Part shown: in pieces, positions 42,957 through 62,737 of the stretch
Position numbering within the stretch: the first letter of the stretch is position 1
Layout: every line of letters starts with the position of its first letter
NCBI GenBank assembly: GCA_020049045.1
Contig: JAIFLN010000055.1
Span: 25,941 to 89,940 of the forward strand
Direction of reading: 5' to 3'
DNA length: 64,000 nucleotides
Source of the DNA: Spirochaetota bacterium
Lineage (GTDB): Bacteria > Spirochaetota > Spirochaetia > JABEVK01
Position numbers and translations under genes: made by a program
The notes under the pieces: generated by a model
What the model saw: the letters and a program-made list of their open reading frames with translations, nothing else
Database searches by the model: none
What the model was told of the DNA's origin: nothing

Positions 42957-43556
42957 ATGAAGCGTTTTTTAGCCTTGGGCCTTTTAGCCTTGGTGGCGGC
43001 CGCCCCTGTTTCTGCTTACAAAATTCTCTATGCCGAACAGTGGTATAAGCTGGTGCACCGCCACCTTTCAGAGACCTCCGACGATGCCCTGGAAAACATT
43101 TACTACCTCGAAAGGGCATTGCGCGCAGATTTTGCCAATCCCTTGAACGCTCTGACACCAATTAAAAATGAGAAAGAATGGACCAGATACCGGGCCTTGT
43201 TCCGAATGCACGTGAATCTCCTTCTCGTACAGCAAACCTTGATTCTGGGATCCAATTTTGACAAGCAGCAGGCATACTTTTACAACTACCCCTGGAAATG
43301 GGCCAACCTGGACAGTCTCAAAAAAGCTGAACAGATCTACAACAACGCTTTAGGCTACTGGAAAGACGCCTTGACCTACAGCGTTGAAGCGGCCAACACT
43401 CCCCCTCTTTGGTTTGAGAATCTTCAGTTTTGGATTGACGAACAGAATCGCATCGAAACGGGAGAGCTGAATTATGAAAAAATCATTGGAAAGCAGTTGG
43501 AAAGGCTGAACAAGGTCAGAAGTGACTTTGAGGCAATGGGTCCCCAGACTTACTGA
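42957..43556 (+). CDS. secreted hypothetical protein
   Basis: The signal peptide is MKRFLALGLLALVAAAPVSAYK. I recognise no other motif. Confidence 0.6.
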   Translation: MKRFLALGLLALVAAAPVSAYKILYAEQWYKLVHRHLSETSDDALENIYYLERALRADFANPLNALTPIKNEKEWTRYRALFRMHVNLLLVQQTLILGSNFDKQQAYFYNYPWKWANLDSLKKAEQIYNNALGYWKDALTYSVEAANTPPLWFENLQFWIDEQNRIETGELNYEKIIGKQLERLNKVRSDFEAMGPQTY

Positions 43557-45001
43557 CCAGCAAAGCTCAGGAACCGCCGGATTCGGCCGGGTTGGGCCCA
43601 GTTGCAGGTTCCTGCCATACGTTGATCCTGCAGATGGGCCTCCAGATGGTTGCAGGCAAACAGCTCGACAATCCTTTCCCCTTCGGCCACTGACATGACC
43701 GGAAGGAAGGCCTGCAGGGCTTGGTTGGCCTGCCAGGGTTTTCCATTCCAGCTCGCGAGCACCTTGGGACGAAATGTGGAATTGCCAAAGGACGGCCAAA
43801 CAACCTTTGCCGGTACAAAACAATAGGGTCCTACCCCCAGCAAGGACCACCAAGATCCCTTTTTCATGGCAGCCCCGATCAGCACGCCACGCCGTTTGGA
43901 AAGTCTTTCGCGGTGTGAAAGCAAATAGTCGAACAACCCTGCCTTACGCAACTCCTGTTCACTCAATGGCCGCCCGTTGGAATGATACGGCAGCAGAATG
44001 TACTTTTCTGGCGATGTAGCGGTTCCTCGAAGCAGCCGGGTTGTGACCAGCGGAAAAAGATATTCAGGGTTGAGATGGTCGGGATACTGTGAAAAGACGA
44101 AGACGTCGGTTGCCCCGCAGGTATTGATTCCTTGCCTGGGTTTTTGCCAGGCCTCGACGTGAATTTGAGGAAGCTGAAACGAGGCGATTTCGGTGTCCGT
44201 TTTTACCGACAAAGGAGAGCCTGCAGGCCCCACTGGCGCAGCAAACAAGGACTGCCAGCCCTGGTCAGACTCAGCGAAATACGGAATTGGATAAACAGTC
44301 TCTTGCCCCAAAAGAAACTGAACAAAACAGAACCTGGTACGGATTCCAGGGAAGACTTTTGTTTTCTGGAAATCATAAATACACTCAAGCTTGACAGGTA
44401 CTCCATCAAAAAGCCATTGGCGGAGAGTAGCATGAGCCCCGTCGTTGAAGAACAACGATGCCGGCAGAAAAAAACCACATTGAGCACCTGTTTTGGTGAG
44501 GCGACGAAACGCAGAGGATAAAATCAGAGCTGCCAGATCCACTCTGGACGCTCCCAGAAGAACCTCACTGCTGCTGCGAACTAACCCCGACTCGATAAAG
44601 TGGGGGGCTAAGGTTTTTTTTAAGGATGGAGAAAGTTCGGTAAAATTGATCCACGGAGGGTTTCCAACCAGATTGTCAAACTGCATCGGAGGAGGATCAG
44701 TGATCACATCGGTGCAGATCAGGTTGCTGCTCGGAAAATCCAGACTGAATTCCTGTCGGAAGGCTTGCTGAAAACGACTCAGCAGAAGCTGTTCCTTTTC
44801 AATCAGAAACAATCGCTGCAACAGTTCGGAAGAGAGCGTTAGTCCCTGGCGGCAATGCTGACGTACCAGGGAGAGCAGAAAAATGCCCTCACCACCCGTG
44901 GGATCGCAGACAGTTTGCCCCTGATGCCAGCGCGAAAGGGTTTGCATCTGGTTGAGAGCCCAATCAGCCCAGATTGCCGGTGTGAAGACAGCGCCGATCA
45001 T
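43550..45001 (-). CDS. gamma-class N6-adenine DNA methyltransferase (Eco57I/TaqI-like), orphan
   Basis: Motif I is VCDPTGGEGIFLL and motif IV is LVGNPPWINF. A long C-terminal region has the size of a target recognition domain. I prefer the ATG at 44999-45001 (MIGAVFTP), which overlaps the upstream TGA as ATGA. Confidence 0.8.
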   Translation of the reverse strand: MIGAVFTPAIWADWALNQMQTLSRWHQGQTVCDPTGGEGIFLLSLVRQHCRQGLTLSSELLQRLFLIEKEQLLLSRFQQAFRQEFSLDFPSSNLICTDVITDPPPMQFDNLVGNPPWINFTELSPSLKKTLAPHFIESGLVRSSSEVLLGASRVDLAALILSSAFRRLTKTGAQCGFFLPASLFFNDGAHATLRQWLFDGVPVKLECIYDFQKTKVFPGIRTRFCFVQFLLGQETVYPIPYFAESDQGWQSLFAAPVGPAGSPLSVKTDTEIASFQLPQIHVEAWQKPRQGINTCGATDVFVFSQYPDHLNPEYLFPLVTTRLLRGTATSPEKYILLPYHSNGRPLSEQELRKAGLFDYLLSHRERLSKRRGVLIGAAMKKGSWWSLLGVGPYCFVPAKVVWPSFGNSTFRPKVLASWNGKPWQANQALQAFLPVMSVAEGERIVELFACNHLEAHLQDQRMAGTCNWAQPGRIRRFLSFAGQ

Positions 45002-45966
45002 AGAAACAGGTTTCGCAGTTTTTCCTGGTCCAAATGACTTCCTATCACCACCAGCTGTCGCCAAGATGGCAGGTCAGCAGCTGCCGAACGGCCTGCCAAT
45101 TCGGTAAACGTCAATGCGCCATCGACCCAGGACACGTCGTTCCAGGCACCTTCGATCATTGTTCGGCCTTTCGCCCGCAGTATCTTGCCGTACTGGTGCT
45201 CGGAAAGCGACTGAAGGCACTCTTCAAGCTTTGGGCGGACGGAGTTCTCTGGCAATGCCAACGAAACCATTTCCAGCCCGTGACCCGGCACCGTTTTTGG
45301 TTGAAATCGCGGTTTCCGAGCCAGTCGATCTTCCAGGGTAGTCTGGAACAGGGCGTCCAGGATTTCAGAACCCATGCCTGAAGGGTCGGCAAAACACAGC
45401 TGCGCTGTCGGATTCAGCCCCGCCAGCATCGACAGGAGGGCCGCCCTGCCCGCTTCCTCGAGATTCTGGGCCTTGCTGACCGCTAGGTGATCGGCGTATC
45501 GTGTCTGCCGTTTGAGAAAGTCCTGAAACATAGGATTGCCTTTGGCTAATCCGAGGGCATCGACAACAGTAATCAAGCTTTCAAGGCGACAGAGAGGGAG
45601 AAATTCGGGACCCTCCAGAATTTCGAGCACACCGTCGGGTATGAAAATGCCGGAAGGTTCAAAGAAAATTCTGTCTGGTGGAGGTTCGGTTTCGAGGATA
45701 GCAGTCAATGTCGCGGCAAAATCCGTTTTCAAGGTGCAGCAGATGCAACCCTGATTGAGCTCGTGAACATCGATTCCGCTTTGAGCCAGAACGGCGGCAT
45801 CGAGTCCGACGGCACCGAATTCATTTTCAATGACCACGGAGTGCTCTCCAAGAGCAATGCTTCGGAGAATCATCTGGCGCAAGAGTGTTGTTTTTCCTGC
45901 ACCGAGAAACCCGGAGACGATGGTTACTTTGACGAGCTTCTTATCCATGAATTTCGATGTCTCCAT
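44998..45966 (-). CDS. COG0523 / CobW-family G3E GTPase (metallochaperone)
   Basis: The P-loop is VTIVSGFLGAGKTTLL and the metal motif is GCICCT. The ENEFG motif is also present. The start is the ATG at 45966 or at 45948, and both overlap the end of the upstream regulator gene. Confidence 0.8.
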   Translation of the reverse strand: METSKFMDKKLVKVTIVSGFLGAGKTTLLRQMILRSIALGEHSVVIENEFGAVGLDAAVLAQSGIDVHELNQGCICCTLKTDFAATLTAILETEPPPDRIFFEPSGIFIPDGVLEILEGPEFLPLCRLESLITVVDALGLAKGNPMFQDFLKRQTRYADHLAVSKAQNLEEAGRAALLSMLAGLNPTAQLCFADPSGMGSEILDALFQTTLEDRLARKPRFQPKTVPGHGLEMVSLALPENSVRPKLEECLQSLSEHQYGKILRAKGRTMIEGAWNDVSWVDGALTFTELAGRSAAADLPSWRQLVVIGSHLDQEKLRNLFL

Positions 45967-47266
45967 CTCCTTGACCCCGGGACTCCCGGAAACGCCCTGG
46001 TGATTGACCTGTAAATCGTTTGAAAACTTTGGAAAAGTAGCTCTGATCATCAAAACCAACCATTCCGGCCACATCAATCAGCGGAATCGTCCTTTCACGC
46101 AGCAAGATTTTGCTTTTATCTATGCGTACGCCGCCGAGGTAGTCCACAAAGCTTTTCCCCATCTCATCCTTGAAAATTTTGCTGAAATGGGAAGGGCTCA
46201 TATGGACATGGTTGGCCACGTCCTGAAGACCGATTTTGCGTCCATAGTTGGCGTTCATATAATGGATGGCTTTTTGAATGAGGTCGGCGTGTTTGACAGA
46301 TTTGAGATTGAACACACAATCGGAAAACCTCTTGAGAATACGGGCCAACCAAGCCGCAATGTCGTCGATGTCTGTCATGCGCTGGAGCTGAAGCAGATAG
46401 TTGTTATTGAGCCCGAAGACTTCCTCAATCGAGGCCCCTCCCTCCAGCGCTGCCCTTGATAGAAGAACCACCAATTCCTGCACGCGGATACGGATACGAG
46501 GCACATCGTTGCCATTGAAGAAGAAAATAAAACCGAGGATTTCGTTCAGGACTTTCTGCGAATTGATTTTGTCACCCTTGGTGATCAGAGAAAGCAGTTC
46601 CCGTTCCTTTTCAACCGGATAGCGGATGTCGCGCTTTCCATCGGTACTTTGTTTGAGTTCATGGATGTATTCGGCGATGCGGGAGCTCTGTGTCGTAGCC
46701 ACAGAATGATTTTTCTGCTTTCCCCCCAGTTCCGACGAAAGACCAGCCGCCACTCGGAACAGACTTTCCGTCAAGGCTGTGACCCTGCTTGGATCAATAT
46801 AGGGTATGGCCTTCAAAAGAGTCCGCAACAGCGCTTGCTGCCCTTGGGACAAGGATCCGGGAATAGGCATTTCTTCCAGCAGGTACTCGTCGGGGTCTAT
46901 CAAGAGAACGGGACCACCGATCAGATTGGCAACAACATGATCATCAAAGAAAACAGGAACAGCCCAATGGGTCATGCTGCTGGGGCAAAAGTAGATGTAG
47001 CGACCACCAAACCGTTCTGCCTGATAGGCTCCATAACGATGAACCGTTGTGCATTCTTGGCTGGCCTTAAGCTCAAGCTCGACGGCTTTCCGACAGAACT
47101 GACAGGCTGACCGTGCAACTTCCTTGATCAGCGGACGGCCATCAATTCCATTAACCTGGCAACAGACTCCTGTTGCTTCCTGAAACTGCGCGGCTGCAGT
47201 TAGAAGTAACGTCCGCTGTTCTGCAGTCAGTTCGGAAGCTTCGGTGAAAGGACTTTTAGGACTCAC
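45941..47266 (-). CDS. PocR-sensor-domain AraC-family transcriptional regulator
   Basis: The N-terminus CQFCRK...ECTTVHRYGAYQAERFGGRYIYFCPSSMTHWAVPV is a PocR-like Cys pattern. The C-terminus has the AraC double HTH (LQDVANHVHMSPSHFSKIFK...VGFDDQSYFSKVFKRFTGQSP). The start is the GTG at 47266 or the ATG at 47314. Confidence 0.8.
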   Translation of the reverse strand: MSPKSPFTEASELTAEQRTLLLTAAAQFQEATGVCCQVNGIDGRPLIKEVARSACQFCRKAVELELKASQECTTVHRYGAYQAERFGGRYIYFCPSSMTHWAVPVFFDDHVVANLIGGPVLLIDPDEYLLEEMPIPGSLSQGQQALLRTLLKAIPYIDPSRVTALTESLFRVAAGLSSELGGKQKNHSVATTQSSRIAEYIHELKQSTDGKRDIRYPVEKERELLSLITKGDKINSQKVLNEILGFIFFFNGNDVPRIRIRVQELVVLLSRAALEGGASIEEVFGLNNNYLLQLQRMTDIDDIAAWLARILKRFSDCVFNLKSVKHADLIQKAIHYMNANYGRKIGLQDVANHVHMSPSHFSKIFKDEMGKSFVDYLGGVRIDKSKILLRERTIPLIDVAGMVGFDDQSYFSKVFKRFTGQSPGRFRESRGQGDGDIEIHG

Positions 47267-47275
47267 AGTAGGGAC

Positions 47276-47284
47276 ATTATACCA
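47276..47284 (-). promoter_or_regulatory. possible extended -10 element (TGgTATAAT) for the regulator-GTPase-methyltransferase operon
   Basis: The minus strand reads TGGTATAAT about 10 nt upstream of the GTG at 47266. No good -35 is present. If the ATG at 47314 is the true start, this element is coding. Confidence 0.25.
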
Positions 47285-47391
47285 GAATTCCAGCAAGTGG
47301 GCACAGATGTGCAAGGCATCACAAAACTTTCCAATACGGCCGCCTTTTTGAAGACTACGGTGACAACATCACGTTTCCTTGGAGGGATTTC

Positions 47392-48768
47392 ATGAAATTC
47401 AACAGTCTTGCGATCAGCAACGCCTGCGATCTGAAATTTGGTTTTGCACCCCGACCTGTCACAACCAGCCATGGTCTTGTCATTGGTGGAGGTACGGTGT
47501 ACCCCGAACTCAACTTCACTTTGCCACCCATGACCATCAGCAAATCAACCATTCCCGAAATTCGGGAGCACTACCGGAGCATTATTGACGAGGCCCTCAC
47601 CCGTGCTCACGAACTGGGACAAAAAGGAGTGGTTTTCGAGTTTGAAACCCTTCTGGAAATGACCATGCAGCCAGAAATCGGTATTGAACTGACAAAAATC
47701 ATGGCCGATGTATGCGCCGAACACCGGGCGAAGAACGGTATCAACGGAGAAATCCGTCTGACACCCAACGATGCCCGCGACTTTGAGCGCCCTCCCTTGC
47801 TCCGCTCCAGTAAACTCCTGGACAGCATGTACAAAATCTTCCGTGAAGGGGCCTTGGCCGGTGGCGACATGCTTTCCATTGAAAGCACCGGCGGCAAGGA
47901 GGTCCATGACGAGGCGTTGATGTACTGCGACATCAAGGGTGCCATTTTCGGGCTGACGGTTTTAGGGGTACGCGACATGCAGTACCTTTGGAAGAACATT
48001 GTGCAGATTGCCAAAGAAACCGGCCGTGTTGCCGGTGGTGATACCGCCTGCGGTTTTGCCAATACAGCCATGGTTCTCGCCGAAAAGAAATACATTCCGC
48101 GGGTGTTTGCCGCCATCGACCGGGTTGTTTCCGTGGTCAGAACCCTTCCCGCCTATGAAGCCGGTGCCGTCGGTCCGAGCAAAGACTGCGGTTACGAAGG
48201 TCCGTTTATGAAAGCCATTGCCGGTATTCCCATCTCGATGGAAGGAAAGACCGCTGCCTGCGCCCACATGAGCCCTGTCGGCAATATCGCAGCCGCCATG
48301 GCCGACCTCTGGAGCAATGAAAGTGTTCAGAACATCAAACTGCTGGGCGGCTACGCCCCCACGGTCTACATGGAACAGCTGATCTATGATACCCGTCTGA
48401 TGAACACTTCGATCAAGAACGGTACCGCCGATGTGTTGCAGAAACTGTTTGTAGATTCGGATGTTTACACCGACCCTCAGGCCTTGGTTCTTTCTCCCGA
48501 TTCCGTAATCGCGATTTCCAAGGAAATCGTCGCTTCGAAGAGCCATGTCGAAGCCGGAAAACGGGCAGCTCTCAAGGCTATCGAACTGATCCGTGCGGCA
48601 AAAAAGAGCGGTCAGCTGGCTATCAACGAAAGAGAAACGGAGTATCTAGATTCGATCCACGAAATTGTTGAGGCCCTGCCCAACACAGAAAGTGCCTTCA
48701 TCGAGGAAATGATTCCGACCATCGATACAGAAAAGTGTATTCTGAAGGAGTACGGCATCGAGGCCTAA
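47392..48768 (+). CDS. MtaB-family methanol:corrinoid methyltransferase homolog
   Basis: This is a 458-aa ORF with GGAGGG 7 nt upstream. LSIESTGGKEVHDEA, GGDTACGFANTAM, AYEAGAVGPSKDCGYEG, KAIAGIPISMEGKTAACAH and LWSNESV match my recollection of Methanosarcina MtaB blocks, including the Glu/Cys/Cys zinc ligands. Confidence 0.85.
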   Translation: MKFNSLAISNACDLKFGFAPRPVTTSHGLVIGGGTVYPELNFTLPPMTISKSTIPEIREHYRSIIDEALTRAHELGQKGVVFEFETLLEMTMQPEIGIELTKIMADVCAEHRAKNGINGEIRLTPNDARDFERPPLLRSSKLLDSMYKIFREGALAGGDMLSIESTGGKEVHDEALMYCDIKGAIFGLTVLGVRDMQYLWKNIVQIAKETGRVAGGDTACGFANTAMVLAEKKYIPRVFAAIDRVVSVVRTLPAYEAGAVGPSKDCGYEGPFMKAIAGIPISMEGKTAACAHMSPVGNIAAAMADLWSNESVQNIKLLGGYAPTVYMEQLIYDTRLMNTSIKNGTADVLQKLFVDSDVYTDPQALVLSPDSVIAISKEIVASKSHVEAGKRAALKAIELIRAAKKSGQLAINERETEYLDSIHEIVEALPNTESAFIEEMIPTIDTEKCILKEYGIEA

Positions 48769-48785
48769 ACGGCACTAGCAGTCCT

Positions 48786-48843
48786 GGTACCTCGAAAAAT
48801 CCAAGAAATCGTCCTTTTTTCAAATACAGAACTTCGAGGTACC
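48786..48843. promoter_or_regulatory. perfect 11-bp inverted repeat between the mtaB-like and RACo-like genes
   Basis: GGTACCTCGAA at 48786-48796 and TTCGAGGTACC at 48833-48843 are separated by 36 nt that contain a T6 run. Confidence 0.3.
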
Positions 48844-48857
48844 CCTAGGATGAACGT

Positions 48858-50426
48858 ATGAACACCCAAATTCACGGCCAGAAAGGTCAGACCCTGCTTG
48901 AATCGATCCGAACCACAGACCATCCCTTGCGGGCACCATGTGCCGGAAAAGGAAAGTGCGGCAAATGCCGGGTGATCCTGAAAACCGATGCAGGCCAGTC
49001 TCCCTTGATGCCAGCCGATGAGCACGAACATCGGCATCTGAGCGAGGGAGAACGGATTCGCGGGGTGCGGCTCGCCTGCCTGGCGCGTTTTGAACGCGAC
49101 GGTACGGTGGAAATTGAACAGGGTGAAGATGGAATCGCTATTCCGGCAGAACAGCTGGCGGTGTCCTTTGACCCCAGAGTAACCGAGGAGGCAAAAGCCT
49201 CGGGACGCCCCTTGCGGGTTGCTGTTGATATTGGAACGACGACACTGGCGGTTTGTCTGGTCGATGCCGCTGCCGCAACGTTGCTCTCCGTGAAAACAGG
49301 TGCCAACGCACAGAAAAGTTTCGGCTCGGACGTTGTCGCACGGATTCAGGCGGTCGTCGACAACCGCACCGCTCTGGAGTCGATGCGCGGTGCGATTGTC
49401 CGTCAGATCGAGGGTCTGGTGCGGGACCAAGTGGAGCAGGCAGGACGGTCCGCCGATGAACTGGATACCATTGTTATTGCAGGAAACACGGTCATGATCC
49501 ACCTGTTCACCGGTGCCGATCCGACGGGCATGGCCTGTGTTCCCTTCCGTCCGGTGTTCCTGGAAACCAAGGCCTGGAAGGCCCCGGACTTGGGCTTTTC
49601 GTTACCTGCAACGTGCACCATTACGGTACTGCCTGGCATTTCGGCATTTGTTGGGGCCGATATCACCGCGGGAGTTCTGGCGACGGAGCTCTACCGTGCC
49701 GAAAAGACCGAATTGCTGCTGGATATCGGTACCAACGGCGAAATGGTGTTGGGAAACCGTCACGGAATGGTGTCAACGGCCACAGCCGCAGGGCCGGCGT
49801 TTGAGGGTGCACAAATCACCCACGGTTGCCCCGGAATACCGGGAGCTCTGGATCATGCCGGCTACAACGATAAGGGCTTCTGGTATACCACGATCAATGA
49901 CCTGCCGTTGACCGGCATCTGTGGTTCGGGGCTTCTGGACCTGGCAGCAGCGCTTCGCCGCGGGGGGCAGCTCGATGAAACCGGATTCCTTGAACTGGCT
50001 GAAGGCGATGAGTTCTTTCCCGACCCTGCGCTGCCTGTCAGCCTGAGTCAGGGCGATATCCGCCAACTGCAGCTGGCCAAGGGCGCGATTGCCGCCGGAG
50101 TCGAAGTTCTGTGCCTTAAGGCAGGCGTCACCACAGAAACCATTGACCGTGTGCATCTAGCTGGCGGCTTTGGAACCTTTATGAGCCCCGGATCGGCGCT
50201 GGCCATCGGGCTGCTTCCCCAGGGATTGAGGGGCAAGGTTGTACCCGCAGGCAATACCGCACTCAAGGGAGCTCTGGAAGTAATTACGAAGGAAGGAGCT
50301 CTCAAACAGGCAGTATGGATTTCCGGTCAAGCCCAGGCAGTTGACTTGTCGACCGAAGCCGCTTTTCAAATGGCCTTCGCTGAAGCGATGCTGTTCCCCG
50401 AGGATGCCGGGGATGATGCCGACTGA
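48858..50426 (+). CDS. RACo-type ATP-dependent reductive activator of corrinoid proteins ([2Fe-2S] ferredoxin domain plus ASKHA/DUF4445 domain)
   Basis: The N-terminus has CAGKGKCGKCRV...LACLA, a plant-type 2Fe-2S pattern. The ASKHA phosphate motifs are VAVDIGTTTLAV and LLLDIGTNGEMVLG. Confidence 0.8.
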   Translation: MNTQIHGQKGQTLLESIRTTDHPLRAPCAGKGKCGKCRVILKTDAGQSPLMPADEHEHRHLSEGERIRGVRLACLARFERDGTVEIEQGEDGIAIPAEQLAVSFDPRVTEEAKASGRPLRVAVDIGTTTLAVCLVDAAAATLLSVKTGANAQKSFGSDVVARIQAVVDNRTALESMRGAIVRQIEGLVRDQVEQAGRSADELDTIVIAGNTVMIHLFTGADPTGMACVPFRPVFLETKAWKAPDLGFSLPATCTITVLPGISAFVGADITAGVLATELYRAEKTELLLDIGTNGEMVLGNRHGMVSTATAAGPAFEGAQITHGCPGIPGALDHAGYNDKGFWYTTINDLPLTGICGSGLLDLAAALRRGGQLDETGFLELAEGDEFFPDPALPVSLSQGDIRQLQLAKGAIAAGVEVLCLKAGVTTETIDRVHLAGGFGTFMSPGSALAIGLLPQGLRGKVVPAGNTALKGALEVITKEGALKQAVWISGQAQAVDLSTEAAFQMAFAEAMLFPEDAGDDAD

Positions 50427-51576
50427 ATTTGAGGAGATTGCCAGGAACTATCAAGAGGCTTGCGGAGTCGACTGTGTGGTTCTTGACAAAAATGCTCAGC
50501 GGGAGGGTTGTCGGTTCTGTCAGTCTCTAGCTAAGTCGGGGCATCCCCTTCCTTCAGACTGTTCTGATGTCCATCGCTACGGTGCCTATCAGGCCGAGCG
50601 TTTTGGTGGCCAGTATATCTACTTCTGCTCCAACAGTTTACTTCACTGGGCCATTCCCTTGGCTCAGGGGGGGGAGACGCAGGCGGTGTTTGTTGGAGGG
50701 CCCGTTTCGCTGGTCGATGCGGAAGAGATTCTGGGAGAGCTGGCGCCTGCCCGGGACCAGCAGCTCGAGTCTGAACTACGGGCCTTGCCGTATATTGAGC
50801 CACATCGGGCCACCGCATTGGCCGACCTTCTGTTCCGGATCGTTCGTGACTTGCGGCAACGTCTGGAGCCCGACCAGTGGTACCCAGATCCGGAGGGAAC
50901 TCCGCCGGCGCTCTACCCGTTTGATAAAGAAAAAGAGCTTCTCGAGCTGCTGGCAGAAGGGAATAAGGAGAAAGCTCAGGCCTTGGTGAATGACATTCTG
51001 GGGCAGGTTTTTTTCACCTCCGGCCGTAAGATCGCAACCGTGCGCGCCCGTGCCCATGAGTTGATGGTGCTGTTGTCCAGAGCAGCCGTGGAAGGCGGTG
51101 CCACTGCCGAAGAAGTTTTCGGTATCAACCAGAACTGGATGCAGCGGTTGCAGCAGGCTACCACCATCGATGAACTGGAATCGGTACTGGCCCGGCTGGT
51201 CCGGCGCTTTGCTGACTGTGTCTTTGTCCTTCAGAAGGTCAAGCACGCTGATATCATGCATAAAGCTGTCCGATTTATCCGCGAAAACTATCATTTGAAA
51301 CTCTCGCTGGAAGAAGTGGCAGCCCATATTTACCTCAGCCCAACGTACTTCAGCCGTCTTTTCAAAGATGAAATGAAAACGAGCTTTGTGAGTTACCTTA
51401 CCGAAGTGCGTGTCGAGAAAAGCAAGCGGCTCCTCGCGGACCGGTCGATACCTCTGGTAGTGGTTGCGGGAATGGCCGGCTTTGACGACCAGAGCTATTT
51501 CACCAGGGTATTTAAGAAAGTCACGGGACTATCTCCCGGAAAATTCCGGGAAACCAGGGGGACACATTATGGCTGA
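50404..51576 (+). CDS. PocR-sensor-domain AraC-family transcriptional regulator (paralog of 45941..47266)
   Basis: CRFCQS...DCSDVHRYGAYQAERFGGQYIYFCSNSLLHWAIPL is nearly identical in pattern to the first regulator. The C-terminus has the AraC HTH (LEEVAAHIYLSPTYFSRLFK...AGFDDQSYFTRVFKKVTGLSP). The start is among the ATGs at 50404-50416, inside the end of the RACo gene. Confidence 0.8.
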   Translation: MPGMMPTEFEEIARNYQEACGVDCVVLDKNAQREGCRFCQSLAKSGHPLPSDCSDVHRYGAYQAERFGGQYIYFCSNSLLHWAIPLAQGGETQAVFVGGPVSLVDAEEILGELAPARDQQLESELRALPYIEPHRATALADLLFRIVRDLRQRLEPDQWYPDPEGTPPALYPFDKEKELLELLAEGNKEKAQALVNDILGQVFFTSGRKIATVRARAHELMVLLSRAAVEGGATAEEVFGINQNWMQRLQQATTIDELESVLARLVRRFADCVFVLQKVKHADIMHKAVRFIRENYHLKLSLEEVAAHIYLSPTYFSRLFKDEMKTSFVSYLTEVRVEKSKRLLADRSIPLVVVAGMAGFDDQSYFTRVFKKVTGLSPGKFRETRGTHYG

Positions 51577-52117
51577 ATTGGCCTTTTTTACGGGTGGAGC
51601 CCGGTCGGGAAAGAGTAGTTTTGCAGAAGCTTATTCTCTCAGACTGGCCAACGAGCGTCGTCTAGGACCCGTAGCCTACTTTGCTACCGGACAACCCATG
51701 GATGCCGAGTTTGAACGTCGGATTGCCCATCACAAAAGCTCCCGTGATGCCCGGTTTCTGACCGTTGAGGAAGGCTTGGATCTCGTTGCTGGCTTTGCAC
51801 GCGCTCGTGAATTGTCTCCCGTGGTGTTGCTCGAATGCATCAGCACGTGGCTGGGAAACGTCTTTCATCATAAAGAGGAAGCGGAGCGGGAACCCTATGC
51901 CATGGCCCAGGTCGAAGGATTGCTCGCCGCTCTGGCAGAGTCACCTGGGGTGTCCCTCAACCTGGTGACCAACGAATTGGGTATGGGGGTGGTTCCCATC
52001 GATGCCTACACACGCCATTATTGTGACGTGCACGGCCGGGTGAACCGGCGGTTGGCCGAGGCGGCTTCGAAAGCCTGGCTTCTAGTTTCGGGCCTGCCCG
52101 TCGTGTTGAAGGAGTGA
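51569..52117 (+). CDS. cobU: adenosylcobinamide kinase / adenosylcobinamide-phosphate guanylyltransferase
   Basis: MAELAFFTGGARSGKSSFAE is the P-loop typical of CobU/CobP. The protein is about 182 aa. I trimmed the start from the track start at 51464. Confidence 0.88.
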   Translation: MAELAFFTGGARSGKSSFAEAYSLRLANERRLGPVAYFATGQPMDAEFERRIAHHKSSRDARFLTVEEGLDLVAGFARARELSPVVLLECISTWLGNVFHHKEEAEREPYAMAQVEGLLAALAESPGVSLNLVTNELGMGVVPIDAYTRHYCDVHGRVNRRLAEAASKAWLLVSGLPVVLKE

Positions 52118-52902
52118 CCATGTACGCCCGGTTCTTCTGTGCTTTTACCTTTATGACCCGAATTCCGTTGCCGGGTGCGAAAAAAATTGTCTTTACCCCC
52201 CAGGTGATCACGGGTTCGATGGTGTTCTACCCTCTGGTAGGCTTGTTTTACAGCCTGGTCACGGTGGGACTCTGGATTGCCGGACGGGCCATTGGTCTTG
52301 AATCCGACCTGGCGGCTCTTGTGATTCTGGCAGCACCGTACCTGATCAACCGATTTCTGCACTTCGACGGCCTGTGTGATGTCCTGGACGGTTTTCTGGC
52401 CGACCGCACCCCGGAACAGCGGCTGGTCATTATGAAAGACAGCCGCAACGGCAGTTTTGCCATGGGCGGGGCAATCTTGGCACTCTTGGCAAAATATCTG
52501 CTGATCCGCCAGCTTTGCGGCTCGGGTGATCTGCTGTTCCTGACCATGGCACCAGTCATAGTCCGCTGGCTGGTGGTTGTATTGGCCTTTAAAGCTGTTT
52601 ATCCGCGTTCCAGCGGCACCTCCGTCTATTTGGTGGGTCAGGTGTCGGTGAAGCACCTGATCCTAACAACCCTGGTTGCGCTCGGTGCAATCGCCCTGCT
52701 TCTGATCGTGTACGGCAATTTCGAAGGGTTCTCCTATATTCCCTGGTGGTCGCTCGGGTTGTCGATGGGGCTGACTCTGTTCTGGCTGGGATGGCTCCGC
52801 TGGGTTTCCAAGCGAAAGATCGGAGGAGTCACCGGCGATGTGCTGGGCTGTTTTATCGAACTGGGAGAAGTCACCTGGTTTGTGGGCGGGGCATTGCTTT
52901 GA
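52114..52902 (+). CDS. cobS: adenosylcobinamide-GDP ribazoletransferase (cobalamin synthase)
   Basis: This is a polytopic membrane protein with FTFMTRIPLPG and the HFDGLCDVLDGF motif. It overlaps cobU as GTGA. Confidence 0.88.
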   Translation: MTMYARFFCAFTFMTRIPLPGAKKIVFTPQVITGSMVFYPLVGLFYSLVTVGLWIAGRAIGLESDLAALVILAAPYLINRFLHFDGLCDVLDGFLADRTPEQRLVIMKDSRNGSFAMGGAILALLAKYLLIRQLCGSGDLLFLTMAPVIVRWLVVVLAFKAVYPRSSGTSVYLVGQVSVKHLILTTLVALGAIALLLIVYGNFEGFSYIPWWSLGLSMGLTLFWLGWLRWVSKRKIGGVTGDVLGCFIELGEVTWFVGGALL

Positions 52903-53696
52903 CAGACTGGCGGGGGCTTTTTCCCTTTTCCGTGGGAGCTCCGTCCTGGGTATTGCCGTTGACCGAGGACAATTTTGTCGGCAATATCCTTTTCCTTGCG
53001 GATAAAGTCGACAAAGTTCAGATCCTCTGTTTTGAAAAAGATCCTGTTGATGAACTGCTCAACGAAAAAGATCTGAAGCGCCTGGTGGAAATACAGCGCA
53101 GCACAGGGTTGAAATTTTCAGTCCACCTCCCGGCTGATCTAGCTTTCCTGGCCACCTCGGACGACCAGGCCTTCAAGAAGAAACTGGACTGTGTTTTGCA
53201 TATTGCCGATATCACGGCATGTCTGGAACCGGAAAACATGATTCTCCACCTTGATGAACCGGAATCCGGCCTTGACGGTCCACAACTGGTTTCCAGGACA
53301 ATTGAAGTCTTAGGGGAATTGAAGCAGCTTTGGACACAAGCCCCTTCCTTGGTCCAGGTGGAGAACACCAACTGGGACCTCACCCTGGCAGCGGCAGAAC
53401 TGGCGGATACAGGCTTTGGAGTCTGCGCCGATTTCGGTCACCTGTACCACCAGGGGTATTCTCTTGAGAATTTCCTGAGCCTCGTTGGACCCTTAGTGCG
53501 GGAGGTGCATCTGCATGGGTTCAACACCACGAAGGACCACCTTCCTTTAGGCGAGCTCGAGCCTGTGCTGAGGAATCCCATTGAGGAATTTCTTAAGCAA
53601 AAAAAGCCTTCCGTGGTGATTGAAAACTTCAAAGCTGCCTGGTTGCAAGAATCCCTGATAGTTCTGGACTCCTGGTGCTCGGGATGGAAGGCCTGA
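52899..53696 (+). CDS. xylose-isomerase-like TIM-barrel protein, candidate cobamide-remodelling phosphodiesterase (CbiR-like)
   Basis: The protein is about 265 aa from the TTG at 52899, which overlaps the cobS TGA as TTGA. Sugar-phosphate-isomerase/AP-endonuclease-2-like strands are LVQVENT, FGVCADFGHL and VHLHGF. It sits between cobS and cobQ. Confidence 0.5.
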   Translation: MTDWRGLFPFSVGAPSWVLPLTEDNFVGNILFLADKVDKVQILCFEKDPVDELLNEKDLKRLVEIQRSTGLKFSVHLPADLAFLATSDDQAFKKKLDCVLHIADITACLEPENMILHLDEPESGLDGPQLVSRTIEVLGELKQLWTQAPSLVQVENTNWDLTLAAAELADTGFGVCADFGHLYHQGYSLENFLSLVGPLVREVHLHGFNTTKDHLPLGELEPVLRNPIEEFLKQKKPSVVIENFKAAWLQESLIVLDSWCSGWKA

Positions 53697-55525
53697 TGCG
53701 TCCTGTCATGGTTTTAGGCTGCACCAGCGACGCCGGCAAAAGTTTTCTTTCGGCAGCCCTCTGCCGCTGGTTTGCCCGCAAAGGAGAACGGGTGGCACCG
53801 TTCAAGGCACAGAATATGAGCAACAACGCAGCCGTCTGTCCTGACGGTTCGGAAATCGGGCGGGCGCAGTTTCTTCAAGCCCAAGCGGCGGGCGTCGTAC
53901 CCGACGCACGGATGAACCCTGTGCTGTTAAAACCCGAAGCTGATACCCATAGCCAGGTGGTCGTGATGGGCCGTTACAGCCCTTTGCTGACCCGCACGCC
54001 GTGGCTGGAACGCCGTGAGAAGCTATGGCCTGTAATCTGTAGCGCCTATGATTCCCTAGCCGCTGACTTTGGCAGGGTGGTGATCGAGGGTGCCGGCAGC
54101 CCTGCTGAGCCGAATTTGATGGCCTATGATCTGGTGAATCTGGCCGTTGCCCGGTATACGGGTGCTGCCTGCTACCTGGTGGCTGACATTGACCGGGGAG
54201 GAGCCTTTGCCCACCTGCTGGGCACCTGGCAAACTCTCGAACCTGCGGACCGTCCGTTGATCCGTGGTTTTGTGCTGAATAAGTTTCGGGGAGACCCGGA
54301 ACTGCTTTTGGATGCACGGGAATGGCTGCTGGAACGCACCGGAGTACCCACTGTTGCTCTTGTGACCTACCGCCGCCACCTTCTGCCCGAAGAGGATAAT
54401 TTTTTTCACCGGGCGCCGGCGGCCTCGAAGGGGCACGTCCGCATCGGTCTGCTGCTCTACCCGTGGGCCTCCAATCTGGACGATTTCGATCCCCTGGCCC
54501 ACCAGGAAGGTGTGGATGTGATTCCTGTCCGAACGGCGGAAGACCTGGAAGCTTTAGACGCACTTCTGTTGCCGGGTAGCAAAAATACGGCCGGCAGCCT
54601 TTCCTTTCTGCGGGAACAAGGTTTTGCTGCCCTTCTGACAGCGATGGCCGCTTCAGGGCTGCCGGTTTACGGCATTTGCGGGGGACTCCAAATGCTAGGA
54701 CGGACGATCGCGGATCCCGAGGGTATGGAAGGGCCCGCCGGATCTTCCGTGCCGGGTTTGGGTCTTCTCGACGTTGAAACGACCTTCGCCACGGAAAAGA
54801 TCACCCGGCAGACAAGGGTAAGCTGTTTCGATGGGGGATCTGTCGAAGGCTACGAAATCCACGTCGGGCAGACCTGTGCCGGACCAAGTGCCAAACCCCA
54901 CCTTGCCGAGGGTCTAGGCTTCCGGCAGGGAAATGTCACCGGCGTTTATCTTCATGGGATTTTCACCAATGACCACTACCGGTACCGCTTTCTCGAAGCA
55001 CTGGGCTGGACGGGCGGCCACGAAGCGTGGAAAACCCGCATCGAGGCGGAACTAGACACGGTGGCCGACTTGGTCGATGAATCGGGACAGTCCAGCTTTT
55101 GCCTTATCGGCCCGCTTGTTCTGGTACATAGCCTGATCAGCCCGGATCAAGAGGCTTTCCGGGGTCTCGCCTGGCACGTCTCCGCATACCGCCAGCCCCA
55201 TGCTGACGTGCATTCTGTAGGACTTTCCCGATTCGGAGGCTTTTTGAGCAATGCTTTGTTCGAGACGCAGCAACACGGCCGCCGCCGCCTGGCGGTCGCA
55301 ATCCCCCAGCACCAGCACAATCTCGTCTCCCCCGTAGCGGAACACCGTGTCCTGGGCACTGACTGTGGTCCGGACCACTTGGGCGATGGTCTGGATGTAA
55401 AAATCCCCTTCCTCATGCCCGTAGGTGTCGTTGACAGCCTTCAGCCCGTCAACATCCATAAAACACAGGCTAAGGGTACCCTGCCCGCCCTGAACCCGCT
55501 GCATCGCGTTGGTCAGCAATTGTAA
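53696..55525 (+). CDS. cobQ: cobyric acid synthase (3' end uncertain; the ORF runs on antisense to the next gene)
   Basis: N-terminal motifs are VMVLGCTSDAGKSFLSAALC and APFKAQNMSNNA. The GATase part has GICGGLQMLG and GYEIHVGQT. Similarity appears to end near 55090, but no stop occurs until 55525. Confidence 0.85.
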   Translation: MRPVMVLGCTSDAGKSFLSAALCRWFARKGERVAPFKAQNMSNNAAVCPDGSEIGRAQFLQAQAAGVVPDARMNPVLLKPEADTHSQVVVMGRYSPLLTRTPWLERREKLWPVICSAYDSLAADFGRVVIEGAGSPAEPNLMAYDLVNLAVARYTGAACYLVADIDRGGAFAHLLGTWQTLEPADRPLIRGFVLNKFRGDPELLLDAREWLLERTGVPTVALVTYRRHLLPEEDNFFHRAPAASKGHVRIGLLLYPWASNLDDFDPLAHQEGVDVIPVRTAEDLEALDALLLPGSKNTAGSLSFLREQGFAALLTAMAASGLPVYGICGGLQMLGRTIADPEGMEGPAGSSVPGLGLLDVETTFATEKITRQTRVSCFDGGSVEGYEIHVGQTCAGPSAKPHLAEGLGFRQGNVTGVYLHGIFTNDHYRYRFLEALGWTGGHEAWKTRIEAELDTVADLVDESGQSSFCLIGPLVLVHSLISPDQEAFRGLAWHVSAYRQPHADVHSVGLSRFGGFLSNALFETQQHGRRRLAVAIPQHQHNLVSPVAEHRVLGTDCGPDHLGDGLDVKIPFLMPVGVVDSLQPVNIHKTQAKGTLPALNPLHRVGQQL

Positions 55526-56638
55526 GCCCGAACGTTTGTTCATAAGGCCTGTCATCTCGTCGATGGTCGCAAAACGTTTCAGAATCTCTTCGGCTTCCTT
55601 CATCTTCGTGATGTCGGCTAAACCCATGAGCAGCATATCCTCGCCGTTATACTGTATCAGGTGGGAAGACATCAGCACGACAAGACTCACACCAACCGGC
55701 AGCGTCAGAACCATCTCGACATTTTCTACGGTGACGCCTGCCTTCAGCTGATCCATCAGAACTTGCATATTTCCCTGCCGGACGGACAGCATGGCGGAAA
55801 GATTCAGGACGGGGGTTTCGAGCCTAGGAAGCTTCAGAACCTCGTGGGCCAGATGATTCAATTTCAACACCTGAAACGTAGAACCATCGAGCAAGAACAT
55901 GGCGGCCGGGGCGGTTTCAAAGAGCCGTTCCATGTTTTTATGGCTGTTTTCGATCTCTTCCATCGCCACTTCGATCTGCTTTTGGGCTGGACGGAAAATA
56001 AAGAGAACTTCCAAAGTCAAGGTAAGGATGGTGAGGATCAGAATGACAATCTCGACGATTTTGATCGCTTCGACTTTGAGCTTCGATTCTGAGTCGTACT
56101 GAAAGACAATCGCATCCATGCCCTTGAGAAAGGACTGTTCCTGGGCCTGAATGACCCGCAGGGGGACGATCAACCTTTCTTGGGCATAGCCCTCTTCGGC
56201 AACGGTCTGAAGCACCTGCTTGCCAGCAGCGAGCATGTCCTGGTACTGGGCTTCGATTCCAGCAAACATTTCGACAACCTTGGGGCTGTTGCTACCCGGC
56301 AGCCCCAGTTCCTTGTCGCCGTGCTGCAGGCCCCGGTGCGAACGCTCCCAGAGGGCCAGTGAGGCTCCCAGTTCGGTCGAATACCTTTTGCGCATTTCAG
56401 TGTCGAGACTGACGTAAAGACCAAAGACAGCCTTGTTGATCCGCTGACTGAGCATGCGTTGGCGTCCGGCAATATTGACAATACGAGAATCATCCTGCTG
56501 GAAAAAAATTGCCAGTTGTATCATTCCCTGGCTAAAGAGAACCAGACAGCCAATGAGGCTGAGGGCCAGGACATAGCGCTTGCGGAGCATGCGGCCCATT
56601 TCGCGGCTTTTCGGCTTGGTGAAGTTCACAGTTTCCAT
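55052..56638 (-). CDS. diguanylate cyclase with an N-terminal PilJ/NarX-type periplasmic sensor, a PAS-like region and a GGDEF domain
   Basis: The sensor region has IVNIAGRQRMLSQRINKA and a TM segment (IVEIVILILTILTL). The catalytic region has DEMTGLMNKRSG...VDGLKAVNDTYGHEEGD...RYGGDEIVLVL. Confidence 0.88.
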   Translation of the reverse strand: METVNFTKPKSREMGRMLRKRYVLALSLIGCLVLFSQGMIQLAIFFQQDDSRIVNIAGRQRMLSQRINKAVFGLYVSLDTEMRKRYSTELGASLALWERSHRGLQHGDKELGLPGSNSPKVVEMFAGIEAQYQDMLAAGKQVLQTVAEEGYAQERLIVPLRVIQAQEQSFLKGMDAIVFQYDSESKLKVEAIKIVEIVILILTILTLTLEVLFIFRPAQKQIEVAMEEIENSHKNMERLFETAPAAMFLLDGSTFQVLKLNHLAHEVLKLPRLETPVLNLSAMLSVRQGNMQVLMDQLKAGVTVENVEMVLTLPVGVSLVVLMSSHLIQYNGEDMLLMGLADITKMKEAEEILKRFATIDEMTGLMNKRSGLQLLTNAMQRVQGGQGTLSLCFMDVDGLKAVNDTYGHEEGDFYIQTIAQVVRTTVSAQDTVFRYGGDEIVLVLGDCDRQAAAAVLLRLEQSIAQKASESGKSYRMHVSMGLAVCGDVPGETPESLLIRADQAMYQNKRADKAKAGLSRFIDQVGHRV

Positions 56639-56751
56639 TGATTCTGATTCTAAAGTAAGTAAGGGGGGTTAACAAGGTGAACTGAAATCTGGCAGGGGCT
56701 AGAATAAACACTCGTCATATCTATTTTCACTATGTTTTTCTCAATTACTAC

Positions 56752-56780
56752 TTGACTACTCCCAAGAGGTTTGCTTCAAT
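56752..56780 (+). promoter_or_regulatory. candidate sigma70-type promoter of adhE
   Basis: TTGACT at 56752-56757 is followed by a 17-nt spacer and then TTCAAT at 56775-56780. The AGGAG RBS lies at about 56816-56820. Confidence 0.3.
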
Positions 56781-56789
56781 AGATTCAAG

Positions 56790-56801
56790 TATATCGATAT
56801 A
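56790..56801. promoter_or_regulatory. perfect 12-bp palindrome TATATCGATATA in the adhE leader
   Basis: I read it directly from the sequence. It lies between the candidate -10 element and the RBS. Confidence 0.25.
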
Positions 56802-59478: not shown

Positions 59479-59537
59479 GGGGTTGCGGTTATAGCGGATG
59501 CTCACTCAAACGTCATCCAGCTCAAAACCGCAACCCC
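59479..59537. terminator. 12-bp perfect inverted repeat between convergent adhE and the GH43 gene (possible bidirectional terminator)
   Basis: GGGGTTGCGGTT lies at 59479-59490 and AACCGCAACCCC at 59526-59537. An inner GGATG/CATCC pairing is also present. The right arm lies inside the last codons of the GH43 gene. Confidence 0.4.
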
Positions 59538-60872: not shown

Positions 60873-60891
60873 GATTGTTCCCTTCTGTTAA

Positions 60892-61899
60892 TTAGGATTG
60901 AAACGGATTGTATTTCCGAAAGGCCTTGAGTTCTCCTTGCAACGCTTCCAGGGGAATTTCAACAGCCTTTGGTTGGGAATACATTTTGTACATAAATCCG
61001 CCCTTGGGTGTCGCCAAATTCTCCACCATCTGTTGGCAATAGTCTTCTACGGCAGCAAGGTCGCAATTTCCTGAGGTAAACTGGATATCTGCTGGATTGA
61101 AAAAGCAAATTTTCCCCCTCCAATGGGACAGTGTGTCCAAACCCATGCTTTTCTGTTGGTCCAGCTGAAGGACATCCACGCCAATTTCGATCAGGTCGTC
61201 GATGATTTCGAGAATATAGCCACAGCAATGGAAAATAAACTTCAATCCTTTCTGATGCACAAGCTGTATCAGCCGTCGCATTGGTTCCTTAAAGAAGGAT
61301 CTCCACATTTCGGGAGCAATCATCAGGCTGTTCTGCAAACCCCAGTCTTCCCAGACAATCACAGCATCCAAACCGATTGCGGCGTAACGTTCGACGGCTT
61401 GCTCACACTTTTCATCAATCAGAGCAATCAAGGTTTTCAACCGCTCGGGTTCCAGATAGAAATCTGTCATAAAATTCTGGTAGCCTCGAAAATCGATCAG
61501 ATTCATCATGCGGAAGCCCAGCCCCCCCATCAGAAACAGATAGGGACGCTGTTCGCGCATCCGCGAGGCCAACTCATAGCGACGGCTGAGTCTCCAGTCC
61601 GGCACCTCTTGATACCAGCGGTGCCAGTTATCCCAATCCTCGAGAGGGTGAACGACCACTTCTCCGAAGGTATATCCAGCAGTTTTCCAGACACACCCCC
61701 ACTCGTCGGCACCATCGGGACCAGGGACAAAATCAGGATCGGAGTTCGAGACCACCGCCATATCGCTCAGGCTGTCGGACTGCAACAGCCGGGCCAGTTC
61801 ACTGTTGAACTCGTTGTTCCGGTCAATGGAAGTACAGAGGGGAATCTTGTCAGGATTTTGGAATTCAATGGCGCGAAGTGTCCGTTCTCTTGAGTTCAC
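60892..61899 (-). CDS. uroporphyrinogen decarboxylase (URO-D) family protein, MT2/MtaA-like
   Basis: SRERTLRAIEFQNPDKIPL is a URO-D-family N-terminus. The protein is TIM-barrel sized. FHCCG matches the HxCG zinc motif of corrinoid-dependent MT2 enzymes. Confidence 0.7.
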   Translation of the reverse strand: MNSRERTLRAIEFQNPDKIPLCTSIDRNNEFNSELARLLQSDSLSDMAVVSNSDPDFVPGPDGADEWGCVWKTAGYTFGEVVVHPLEDWDNWHRWYQEVPDWRLSRRYELASRMREQRPYLFLMGGLGFRMMNLIDFRGYQNFMTDFYLEPERLKTLIALIDEKCEQAVERYAAIGLDAVIVWEDWGLQNSLMIAPEMWRSFFKEPMRRLIQLVHQKGLKFIFHCCGYILEIIDDLIEIGVDVLQLDQQKSMGLDTLSHWRGKICFFNPADIQFTSGNCDLAAVEDYCQQMVENLATPKGGFMYKMYSQPKAVEIPLEALQGELKAFRKYNPFQS

Positions 61900-62726
61900 T
61901 TAAGCACCGCCCCTGCAGTGAAACTTTTCTCAACTTGGTGACTGAACACCAGATAGAACAGAACAACCGGAATGCTCGAAATCACAATGGCGGCCGACAT
62001 GGGTGCCCATTGAGTCGAGAACTCTCCTTGGAACGCCATGAGGCCCAGAGGCAAAGTCTTGTTGACATTGCTGTTAATCAAAGTGGCGGCCATAATAAAC
62101 TCATTCCAGACATTCAAAAAAGTAAAGATACCAACAGCAGAAATGGCCGGCATGATAACAGGAAGAATGATGGAAAAAAAAGTCCTGTAGAGGCTACAAC
62201 CGTCGATGGCTGCCGCCTGCTCCAATTCCGAAGGTAAGCTGCGTAGAAAATTGGTGAACACATACACCCCTAAGGGCAGTCCCATCGAGATATAGGGAAG
62301 GATAATTCCGGCCTGCTGTCCTAACAGCCCAATGTTTTTGAGGATAATGAAAAGCGGGATCAGAGTGACATGAACGGGAACCATTAAACCGGCGAGAAAA
62401 AGGAAAAGTACCAGCCCGCTGATTTTCCACTTCATGCGCGAAATGGCGTAGGCGACCATGCTGCTCATGAGCAGGGTCAAAGTCACGCAAACCGCTGAAA
62501 TCAGGACGCTGTTGAGAAAATAGTTTCCAATATTACCTTCTTTCCAAGCTTTTCCATAATTTTCTACTCTCCAGACTTCGGGCAACGAGAACGCGCCCTT
62601 GGTGATGATTTCGCCATTTGTCTTGAAAGAAGAAAGGAGGAGCCAAATGAGCGGTAACAGTTGAATCAAGGCAAAGACAACGAGCACAATATAGACGAGC
62701 GGTTTATCCCAGCGTTTGAAGGCCAT
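61896..62726 (-). CDS. carbohydrate ABC transporter permease (MalG-like)
   Basis: The EAA loop is ELEQAAAIDGCSLYRTFFSIILP and six TM segments are apparent. The start is trimmed to the ATG at 62726. Confidence 0.88.
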   Translation of the reverse strand: MAFKRWDKPLVYIVLVVFALIQLLPLIWLLLSSFKTNGEIITKGAFSLPEVWRVENYGKAWKEGNIGNYFLNSVLISAVCVTLTLLMSSMVAYAISRMKWKISGLVLFLFLAGLMVPVHVTLIPLFIILKNIGLLGQQAGIILPYISMGLPLGVYVFTNFLRSLPSELEQAAAIDGCSLYRTFFSIILPVIMPAISAVGIFTFLNVWNEFIMAATLINSNVNKTLPLGLMAFQGEFSTQWAPMSAAIVISSIPVVLFYLVFSHQVEKSFTAGAVLK

Positions 62727-62737
62727 ATTGTCCCCTC

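Follow-up and report, generated by a model that had tools for sequence, protein, structure and literature searches.

A spirochaete mtaB gene with no mtaC in reach, joined to ramA and cobamide-remodelling genes

Introduction

Genes for MtaB, the catalytic subunit of methanol:corrinoid methyltransferase, occur in many bacterial phyla, non-acetogens among them, and are expressed by Acidobacteriota in peat (PMC10805028). Here we describe an mtaB gene of a spirochaete from microbial-mat metagenomes, assigned to the spirochaetes by a TP_0324/TamB marker and by its closest related locus (L006, Spirochaetales). It lies in a 64,000-nucleotide stretch of contig JAIFLN010000055.1 (hereafter the window; coordinates count from its first letter), and no gene for the partner corrinoid protein, MtaC, was identified beside it.

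The described systems closest to this locus each share part of it. The Methanosarcina barkeri MtaBC complex (2I2X) has an MtaB of the same Pfam family over its full length, with the same TIM-barrel fold and Glu/Cys/Cys zinc site. Unlike that system, the window host is bacterial, its MtaB is only about 34% identical to 2I2X chain A, neither mtaC nor mtaA lies alongside, and the activase is of the bacterial 2Fe-2S RACE type. In the mtaR-mtaB-mtaC-mtaA operon of Eubacterium limosum, MtaR is a methanol-responsive activator with PocR and AraC domains that is conserved in acetogen mta operons (PMC13602510). The window likewise has a PocR/AraC regulator beside mtaB, and both systems pair corrinoid dependence with an activating enzyme. 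The window cluster differs in lacking mtaC and MT2 genes, in having two regulator paralogues, and in having ramA and cobamide salvage genes right after mtaB.

Association with cobamide genes also has parallels. Methanol methyltransferase and vitamin B12 genes of Desulfotomaculum (Desulfofundulus) kuznetsovii (Desku_0050-60) form one operon that is co-induced on methanol plus cobalt (PMC5770442). This is a precedent for the linkage seen in the window, although the D. kuznetsovii operon encodes MtaC, two MtaA proteins and B12 synthesis, whereas the window has genes for salvage, remodelling and late amidation and neither mtaC nor mtaA. In Akkermansia muciniphila, as in the window, cbiR, cobU, cobS and cobQ form a group for the remodelling of cobamides (PMC7733943). 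That locus is described without methyltransferase genes, whereas the remodelling genes of the window follow mtaB, ramA and a PocR/AraC regulator. Genes of COG0523 subfamily 13 cluster with mtaA, mtaB, mtaC and ramM (PMC2770081).

We give a probability of roughly 70% to the reading that the locus is part of a canonical methanol methyltransferase system of three components whose genes are dispersed, and does not encode a new stand-alone enzyme. The family is known and the gene arrangement is less common but recurrent; the locally unusual feature is the fusion to a CbiR remodelling module. The missing mtaC is most simply explained by a partner that is encoded elsewhere.

The MtaB protein

The gene is preceded by a GGAGGG ribosome-binding site, 7 nt upstream of the ATG.

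47392..48768, plus strand: mtaB, methanol:corrinoid methyltransferase catalytic subunit, 458 amino acids

An earlier reading made from the sequence alone (the sequence-only reading) had aligned this protein by eye with M. barkeri MtaB along its whole length, listed five matching blocks, and proposed that a glutamate and two cysteines that bind zinc are conserved. All of this was borne out. The Pfam MtaB profile (PF12176) spans the entire protein (residues 2-454 of 458 on profile positions 3-459 of 460; 528 bits, E 2.5e-158), and 2I2X_A, the only solved MtaB structure, aligns over residues 2-452 (E 1.5e-80). The five blocks were located at residues 161-170 (LSIESTGGKE), 215-227 (GGDTACGFANTAM), 254-270 (AYEAGAVGPSKDCGYEG), 283-292 (MEGKTAACAH) and 307-312 (WSNESV).

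The sequence-only reading had also proposed a formal alignment and structure prediction against the MtaB crystal structure. An AlphaFold2 model made with 31 homologues (mean predicted local distance difference test score, pLDDT, 87.4; predicted template modelling score, pTM, 0.90) matched 2I2X_A in Foldseek as a TIM barrel with a template modelling (TM) score of 0.93 and a root-mean-square deviation of 2.1 Å, and the runners-up were generic TIM barrels (TM 0.32-0.5). We take the zinc ligands of 2I2X to be E164, C220 and C269, reportedly the numbers of Hagemeier et al. (2006). Counted along the pairwise alignment, these positions are homologous to E164, C220 and C266 of the window protein. Their columns show no variation among 79 of 79 aligned MtaB proteins, or in all 31 of the homologue set used for the model. 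A review gives the ligands as one glutamate and two cysteines, with no residue numbers (PMC6257451). The zinc-site assignment thus draws on the reported residue numbers, the review and the invariance of the columns.

47881-47883, plus strand: E164, putative zinc ligand, homologous column
48049-48051, plus strand: C220, putative zinc ligand, homologous column
48187-48189, plus strand: C266, putative zinc ligand, homologous column

The family is large in members (more than 7,000 proteins after clustering at 90%, at E ≤ 1e-10) and compact in sequence, with 647 clusters at 50% identity at E ≤ 1e-3 and 120 at E ≤ 1e-30 among the 1.84 billion searched. We compared the window protein with 38 MtaB proteins encoded next to mtaC. 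Conservation among these reaches 95% or more at 128 columns. The window protein is unchanged in 126 of them, and the two differences (F198Y and T277A) are both conservative.

The position of mtaC

The sequence-only reading had noted that no MtaC is encoded adjacent to mtaB, and motif, profile and similarity searches of the window and its flanks, all empty, agree. No plausible open reading frame (ORF) with a DxHxxG motif was identified in the window. A hidden Markov model of MtaC built from relatives found no match there at E ≤ 1e-8, nor at E ≤ 10 with filters off, and tblastn of the window with three MtaC proteins gave noise only, with no remnants of an mtaC pseudogene around mtaB. No gene for a B12-binding protein was identified in the 10 kb past the 3' end of the window or in about 2.4 kb past its 5' end. 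We rejected the possibility that mtaC is missing through an assembly artefact, as the gene order at the mtaB locus is identical in two independent assemblies (JGI and ENA).

We collected 80 related mtaB loci from Spirochaetota, Verrucomicrobiota, Planctomycetota (including Kuenenia), Betaproteobacteria, Acidobacteriota, Deltaproteobacteria and Clostridia. The position of mtaC was scored at 46 related loci whose flanks extend 5 kb or more each way.

mtaC at most 100 nt from mtaB: 24 of 46 loci
mtaC 0.1-10 kb from mtaB: 12 of 46 loci
mtaC out of reach: 10 of 46 loci

Thus, about one in five related loci have mtaB with no mtaC nearby, a minority arrangement but a common one. In a neighbour-joining tree (with M. 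barkeri and uncultured Clostridia as the only outgroups), mtaC-less loci are interleaved with mtaC-linked ones, and we therefore infer that mtaB and mtaC have become unlinked many times.

The reverse situation was also seen. Loci L174-L176 and a 29-kb JGI contig carry a lone MtaC-type gene beside genes for citrate synthase and 2-oxoglutarate dehydrogenase, with no methyltransferase gene nearby. This solitary gene is the mirror image of an orphan mtaB, and is evidence that such systems often have scattered components.

Genes that accompany mtaB, and a proposed pathway

Unbiased clustering of the neighbours of mtaB recovered PocR/AraC regulators, MtaC-type corrinoid proteins, URO-D proteins, RamA, CobW and DUF1638-like proteins as recurrent, and homocysteine (Hcy) methyltransferase and MtrH domains as rarer. 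In the 46 loci, a PocR/AraC gene was present in 35, ramA in 24 and cobW in 20. These three are the most frequent neighbours of the family. RamA, CobW and two PocR/AraC regulators, all of which are encoded in the window, are the usual escort of three-component methanol methyltransferase systems.

48858..50426, plus strand: ramA/RACE-type reductive activator of corrinoid proteins, 522 amino acids, 89 nt past mtaB
45941..47314, minus strand: PocR-sensor/AraC helix-turn-helix (HTH) regulator, MtaR-like, transcribed away from mtaB with 77 nt between the two
44998..45948, minus strand: COG0523/CobW-family G3E GTPase (PF02492, PF07683), with a P-loop (GAGKTT) and a CxCC motif (GCICC)
50413..51576, plus strand: second PocR/AraC regulator, overlapping ramA by 14 nt

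The activase has an N-terminal 2Fe-2S ferredoxin domain (C-x5-C-x2-C...C; Fer2, residues 4-77), a Raco_middle domain (121-280) and a C-terminal ASKHA region (RACo_C_ter, 284-516). It scores under the NCBIfam cut-offs for AcsV and RamA (104.8 against 500 bits for the methanogen RamA model), and is thus a member of the RACE/RamA superfamily outside the named AcsV and RamA subfamilies. Activators of the RACE/RACo type work by docking on corrinoid proteins. For this reason, the presence of RamA next to mtaB is the strongest local argument against a mechanism that involves no corrinoid protein.

The two regulators are paralogues (46% identical), each with an N-terminal PocR domain and a C-terminal AraC-type HTH, and their response to methanol is putative. 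The CobW-type GTPase, whose gene overlaps the 3' end of the minus-strand regulator gene by 8 nt, is a probable metallochaperone. An adjacent gene (43550-45001, minus strand) encodes a 483-amino-acid protein with a weak Pfam match to Eco57I (N6-adenine methylase-like); it overlaps the cobW stop by 4 nt and seems to end the pocR/araC-cobW transcription unit.

In the canonical pathway that we propose, MtaB would activate methanol at its zinc site and methylate a corrinoid in its Co(I) state. The methyl acceptor would be an MtaC-type corrinoid protein whose gene lies elsewhere in the genome; URO-D-type methyltransferases, for example the one encoded near 60.9 kb of the window (below), may use the same protein. 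RamA and ATP would re-reduce the corrinoid protein from Co(II) to Co(I), and MtaB would receive its metal, probably zinc, from the CobW-type GTPase. Either or both of the PocR/AraC regulators may turn the locus on in the presence of methanol, as MtaR does in E. limosum. Co-expression of cobU, cobS, cbiR and cobQ would allow salvaged cobamides to be rebuilt to the form needed by the corrinoid protein, and a separately encoded MT2 would carry the methyl group onward to tetrahydrofolate or another acceptor.

The sub-clade of the window MtaB

The sub-clade relatives of the window MtaB are from a Spirochaetales bacterium (L006, ELA137, 91% amino acid identity), a member of the Rectinemataceae (L004, GCA_049513895.1) and a betaproteobacterial branch (L007, L008 and L009; 83-84%). 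Most other spirochaete MtaB proteins (L010-L015) are only 58-64% identical to it. Because identity to the betaproteobacterial proteins exceeds that to most spirochaete ones, and the flanks of the mtaB genes of the window, L006 and L004 are wholly different, mtaB looks to have moved between phyla recently, as a small unit. The ratio of nonsynonymous to synonymous substitution rates (dN/dS) between the window gene and that of L006 is 0.036. This value implies strong purifying selection, and the gene is not a relic.

The betaproteobacterial members show where a partner can lie. In a Burkholderiales genome (L007), an mtaC-ramA-DUF1638-URO-D-pocR module was identified 7.3 kb from mtaB. On a 1.34-Mb Propionivibrio contig (JASGIW010000004.1; MtaB likewise 83-84% identical), mtaB appeared to be an orphan when viewed at ±10 kb, and mtaC-ramA-DUF1638-URO-D lie about 12.5 kb downstream, with cobT, cobC and cobD between. 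In a third locus (L170, whose mtaB was compared at the DNA level only, at 75% nucleotide identity), the mtaC module is 1.9 kb from mtaB, and cobC and cobT lie between. Thus, mtaB of this lineage is habitually apart from its partner, the partner is present in three of three cases, and two of these islands also contain nucleotide-loop genes. These islands resemble the window in having cobW next to mtaB and mtaB apart from mtaC. They differ in that mtaC-ramA-DUF1638-URO-D is found within 2-13 kb, whereas the window keeps ramA next to mtaB and has none of the mtaC, DUF1638 and URO-D_b genes in reach.

Cobamide-remodelling genes

Directly after the second regulator gene is a set of cobamide genes.

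51569..52117, plus strand: cobU, adenosylcobinamide kinase/cobinamide-phosphate guanylyltransferase, overlapping the regulator gene by 8 nt
52120..52902, plus strand: cobS, cobamide 5'-phosphate synthase, after a 2-nt gap from cobU
52899..53696, plus strand: cbiR, cobamide-remodelling phosphodiesterase (AP endonuclease 2 fold; PF01261, NF041277), overlapping cobS by 4 nt
53696..55525, plus strand: cobQ/cbiP, cobyric acid synthase, overlapping cbiR by 1 nt

Profile searches identified CobU, CobS, CbiR and CobQ, which confirms the earlier statement that cobamide-processing genes adjoin mtaB. CbiR, flanked by cobS and cobQ, matches the NF041277 equivalog with 167.3 bits (cut-off 105) over positions 1-248 of 249. 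The genes mtaB-ramA-pocR/araC-cobU-cobS-cbiR-cobQ are on one strand and nearly gapless, and are divergent from the MtaR-like pocR/araC gene and cobW. In none of the 80 other loci was cobU-cobS-cbiR-cobQ found next to mtaB, and the linkage of mtaB-ramA to these genes is unique to the window species.

No cobalamin riboswitch, or member of any other Rfam family, was identified in the window, including the region before cobU-cobS-cbiR-cobQ (44500-56800); the PocR/AraC regulators seem to control these genes in place of a riboswitch. A scan of the sequence for promoter and terminator consensus elements gave matches no commoner than in shuffled sequence.

The cobQ product is 616 amino acids long in the window, compared to 473 when 31 nt that include the stop codon (GATGGGCAAAGGATCTGGTTAAACTGGGGTA), missing at 55087-55088, are present. 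Their loss also lengthens a convergent GGDEF ORF by 7 codons. The extra letters are present in the JGI and ENA assemblies and in contigs from three public runs, so the deletion at the 3' end of cobQ probably reflects a rare variant or a mistake in assembly.

A second methyltransferase gene and other clusters

A further candidate for corrinoid-dependent metabolism was identified in an operon for sugar uptake.

60892..61899, minus strand: URO-D-superfamily (MtaA/CmuA-like) methyltransferase, in a sugar ATP-binding cassette (ABC) transporter/GH43 operon

The operon (59502-63622, minus strand) encodes a substrate-binding protein, two permeases, the URO-D protein and a GH43 protein, and genes for a rhamnosidase, a GH43 protein with CBM6 and a LacI regulator are close by; a similar arrangement was seen in L086. 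The URO-D/MtaC/RamA modules of L169, L171 and L173 also abut sugar ABC transporters, together with rhaM in L169 and L171. In such operons, URO-D proteins may carry out corrinoid-dependent demethylation of O-methylated sugars. The window protein is a possible second corrinoid-dependent methyltransferase of this organism, with a weak link to mtaB. It too would need a corrinoid protein, and none is encoded in the window.

The comparison of loci also revealed a recurrent cluster of a gene with an Hcy-S-methyltransferase domain, ramA, and an ORF of about 1.8 kb (stop to stop) that ends in an MtaC-like B12-binding domain (L137, L142, L144-L146, L148, L149, L152-L154, L161-L164 and L167; several are from human-gut metagenomes). 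This looks like a split, RamA-serviced system similar to methionine synthase. One large fusion protein (P0424, 1,238 amino acids), unlike characterised systems, has an MtaB domain at residues 795-1238.

Evidence against the canonical reading

Several observations weigh against a canonical system with a distant partner. About 75 kb around mtaB (from about -49 to +26 kb) is free of mtaC and of B12-binding domains. Scanning metagenomes with the MtaC of L007, and homologue searches with MtaC of the beta and spirochaete types, returned candidates, none of them from JGI 3300033508 or ERZ2286749, the two samples known to hold the window organism. All spirochaete members of the sub-clade (window, L006 and L004) have mtaB without mtaC in reach, in three unrelated contexts; L006 and L004 share only mtaB with the window and have no flanking synteny with it. 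Gene spacing alone suggests that mtaB through cobQ are co-transcribed. Finally, the window MtaB scores 404 bits against the cut-off of 720 for NF040651 (MtaB_Meth, the NCBIfam methanogen equivalog), and by the NCBI rule it is placed, on profile score, as a family member and not as an equivalog of the archaeal enzyme.

Two mat runs (X1 and X2) contain the window organism at a depth of about 6-8. They contain contigs with MtaC, RamA and URO-D genes that are 80-87% like those of L007 and L169, at a depth of about 3-5.5. Their host is confounded by a second mtaB in these runs (depth 4.7), which has 71 mismatches to L007 over the stretch, the same number as the betaproteobacterial L008. Because this betaproteobacterium-like mtaB is present in the same runs, the MtaC contigs are not assignable to the spirochaete.

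Alternative explanations

The sequence-only reading had raised the possibility that a stand-alone MtaB acts on free cobamide or on cobamide being remodelled. In this explanation there would be no corrinoid protein, and MtaB, with RamA, would methylate free or partly rebuilt cobamide; in a variant, CbiR would hydrolyse the methyl-cobamide made by MtaB to methyl-cobinamide-phosphate, from which CobU and CobS would rebuild the cofactor. The MtaB of M. barkeri reportedly methylates free cob(I)alamin in vitro (Sauer and Thauer, Eur J Biochem 1997 and 1999). In the window, mtaB-ramA is packed together with cobU-cobS-cbiR-cobQ, with overlaps or gaps of at most 2 nt after ramA, and the locus has neither an adenosyltransferase gene nor mtaC. 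CbiR hydrolyses methylcobalamin (MeCbl) as well as adenosylcobalamin (AdoCbl) (PMC7733943), and two other members of the sub-clade have nucleotide-loop genes (cobT and cobC) beside mtaB. However, those two relatives (Propionivibrio and L170) carry mtaC in the same island, and a fusion of mta and B12 genes is simply explained by cofactor supply. The stand-alone proposal is not supported; also against it are RamA next door, the absence of mtaC from 10 of 46 loci, the retention of 126 of 128 conserved columns (i.e., no divergence from mtaC-linked MtaB proteins), and a linkage to remodelling genes that no other locus shares. We regard it as unlikely.

A broader form of this idea is that the MtaB of this spirochaete lineage has been freed of a dedicated MtaC. 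With RamA and methanol it would methylate free or loosely bound cobamide, and the methyl ligand would protect the cofactor or mark it for CbiR, CobU and CobS. The idea draws on three spirochaete genomes in which mtaB is retained under strong purifying selection and mtaC is out of reach, and on the acceptance of MeCbl by CbiR. If it were true, methanol would drive the formation of methyl-cobamide and an MT1 enzyme would have a new physiological role, but we consider it improbable.

Less likely still are an enzyme for another methyl donor and a decaying gene. The sequence-only reading had suggested a donor other than methanol, and an MtaB-fold enzyme could in principle use methyl ethers, another small alcohol, or methyl esters from polysaccharide breakdown. 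To our knowledge, every characterised member of the MtaB family uses methanol. Consistent with another donor are the score below the methanogen equivalog cut-off, the occurrence of the clade in polysaccharide-degrading phyla (Spirochaetota, Verrucomicrobiota and Planctomycetota), and its frequent position beside several URO-D methyltransferases and sugar transporters; methanol use in this clade is predicted from sequence. The suggestion is unsupported, given that the window protein has its zinc ligands and almost every conserved column in common with the whole family, M. barkeri included. The family is also small and compact at 50% identity, and the flanking regulators are MtaR-like. In such habitats, the de-esterification of pectin is expected to yield methanol (PMC13391211). 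We thus doubt that the donor is anything other than methanol.

That the locus is a functionless leftover of a horizontally acquired mta island, after loss of mtaC and MT2 genes, is very unlikely: the identities that point to horizontal transfer and the wholly different flanks of window, L006 and L004 would fit, but the ORF is intact with a strong ribosome-binding site, the zinc ligands are conserved, RamA, CobW and two regulators are retained, and dN/dS between the two spirochaete copies is very low.

Implications

The locus would represent a new kind of biology only if the enzyme truly needs no corrinoid protein. If the canonical reading is right, this mat spirochaete joins the growing number of bacteria, neither acetogenic nor methanogenic, that can take methyl groups from methanol. 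In that case it also shows that mtaB is not by itself a fully reliable sign of a complete system, because its partner genes can lie on other contigs or at distances of tens of kilobases. The direct fusion of mtaB-ramA to remodelling genes that include cbiR hints that methylotrophs auxotrophic for cobamides adapt the cobamides they salvage to their corrinoid proteins.

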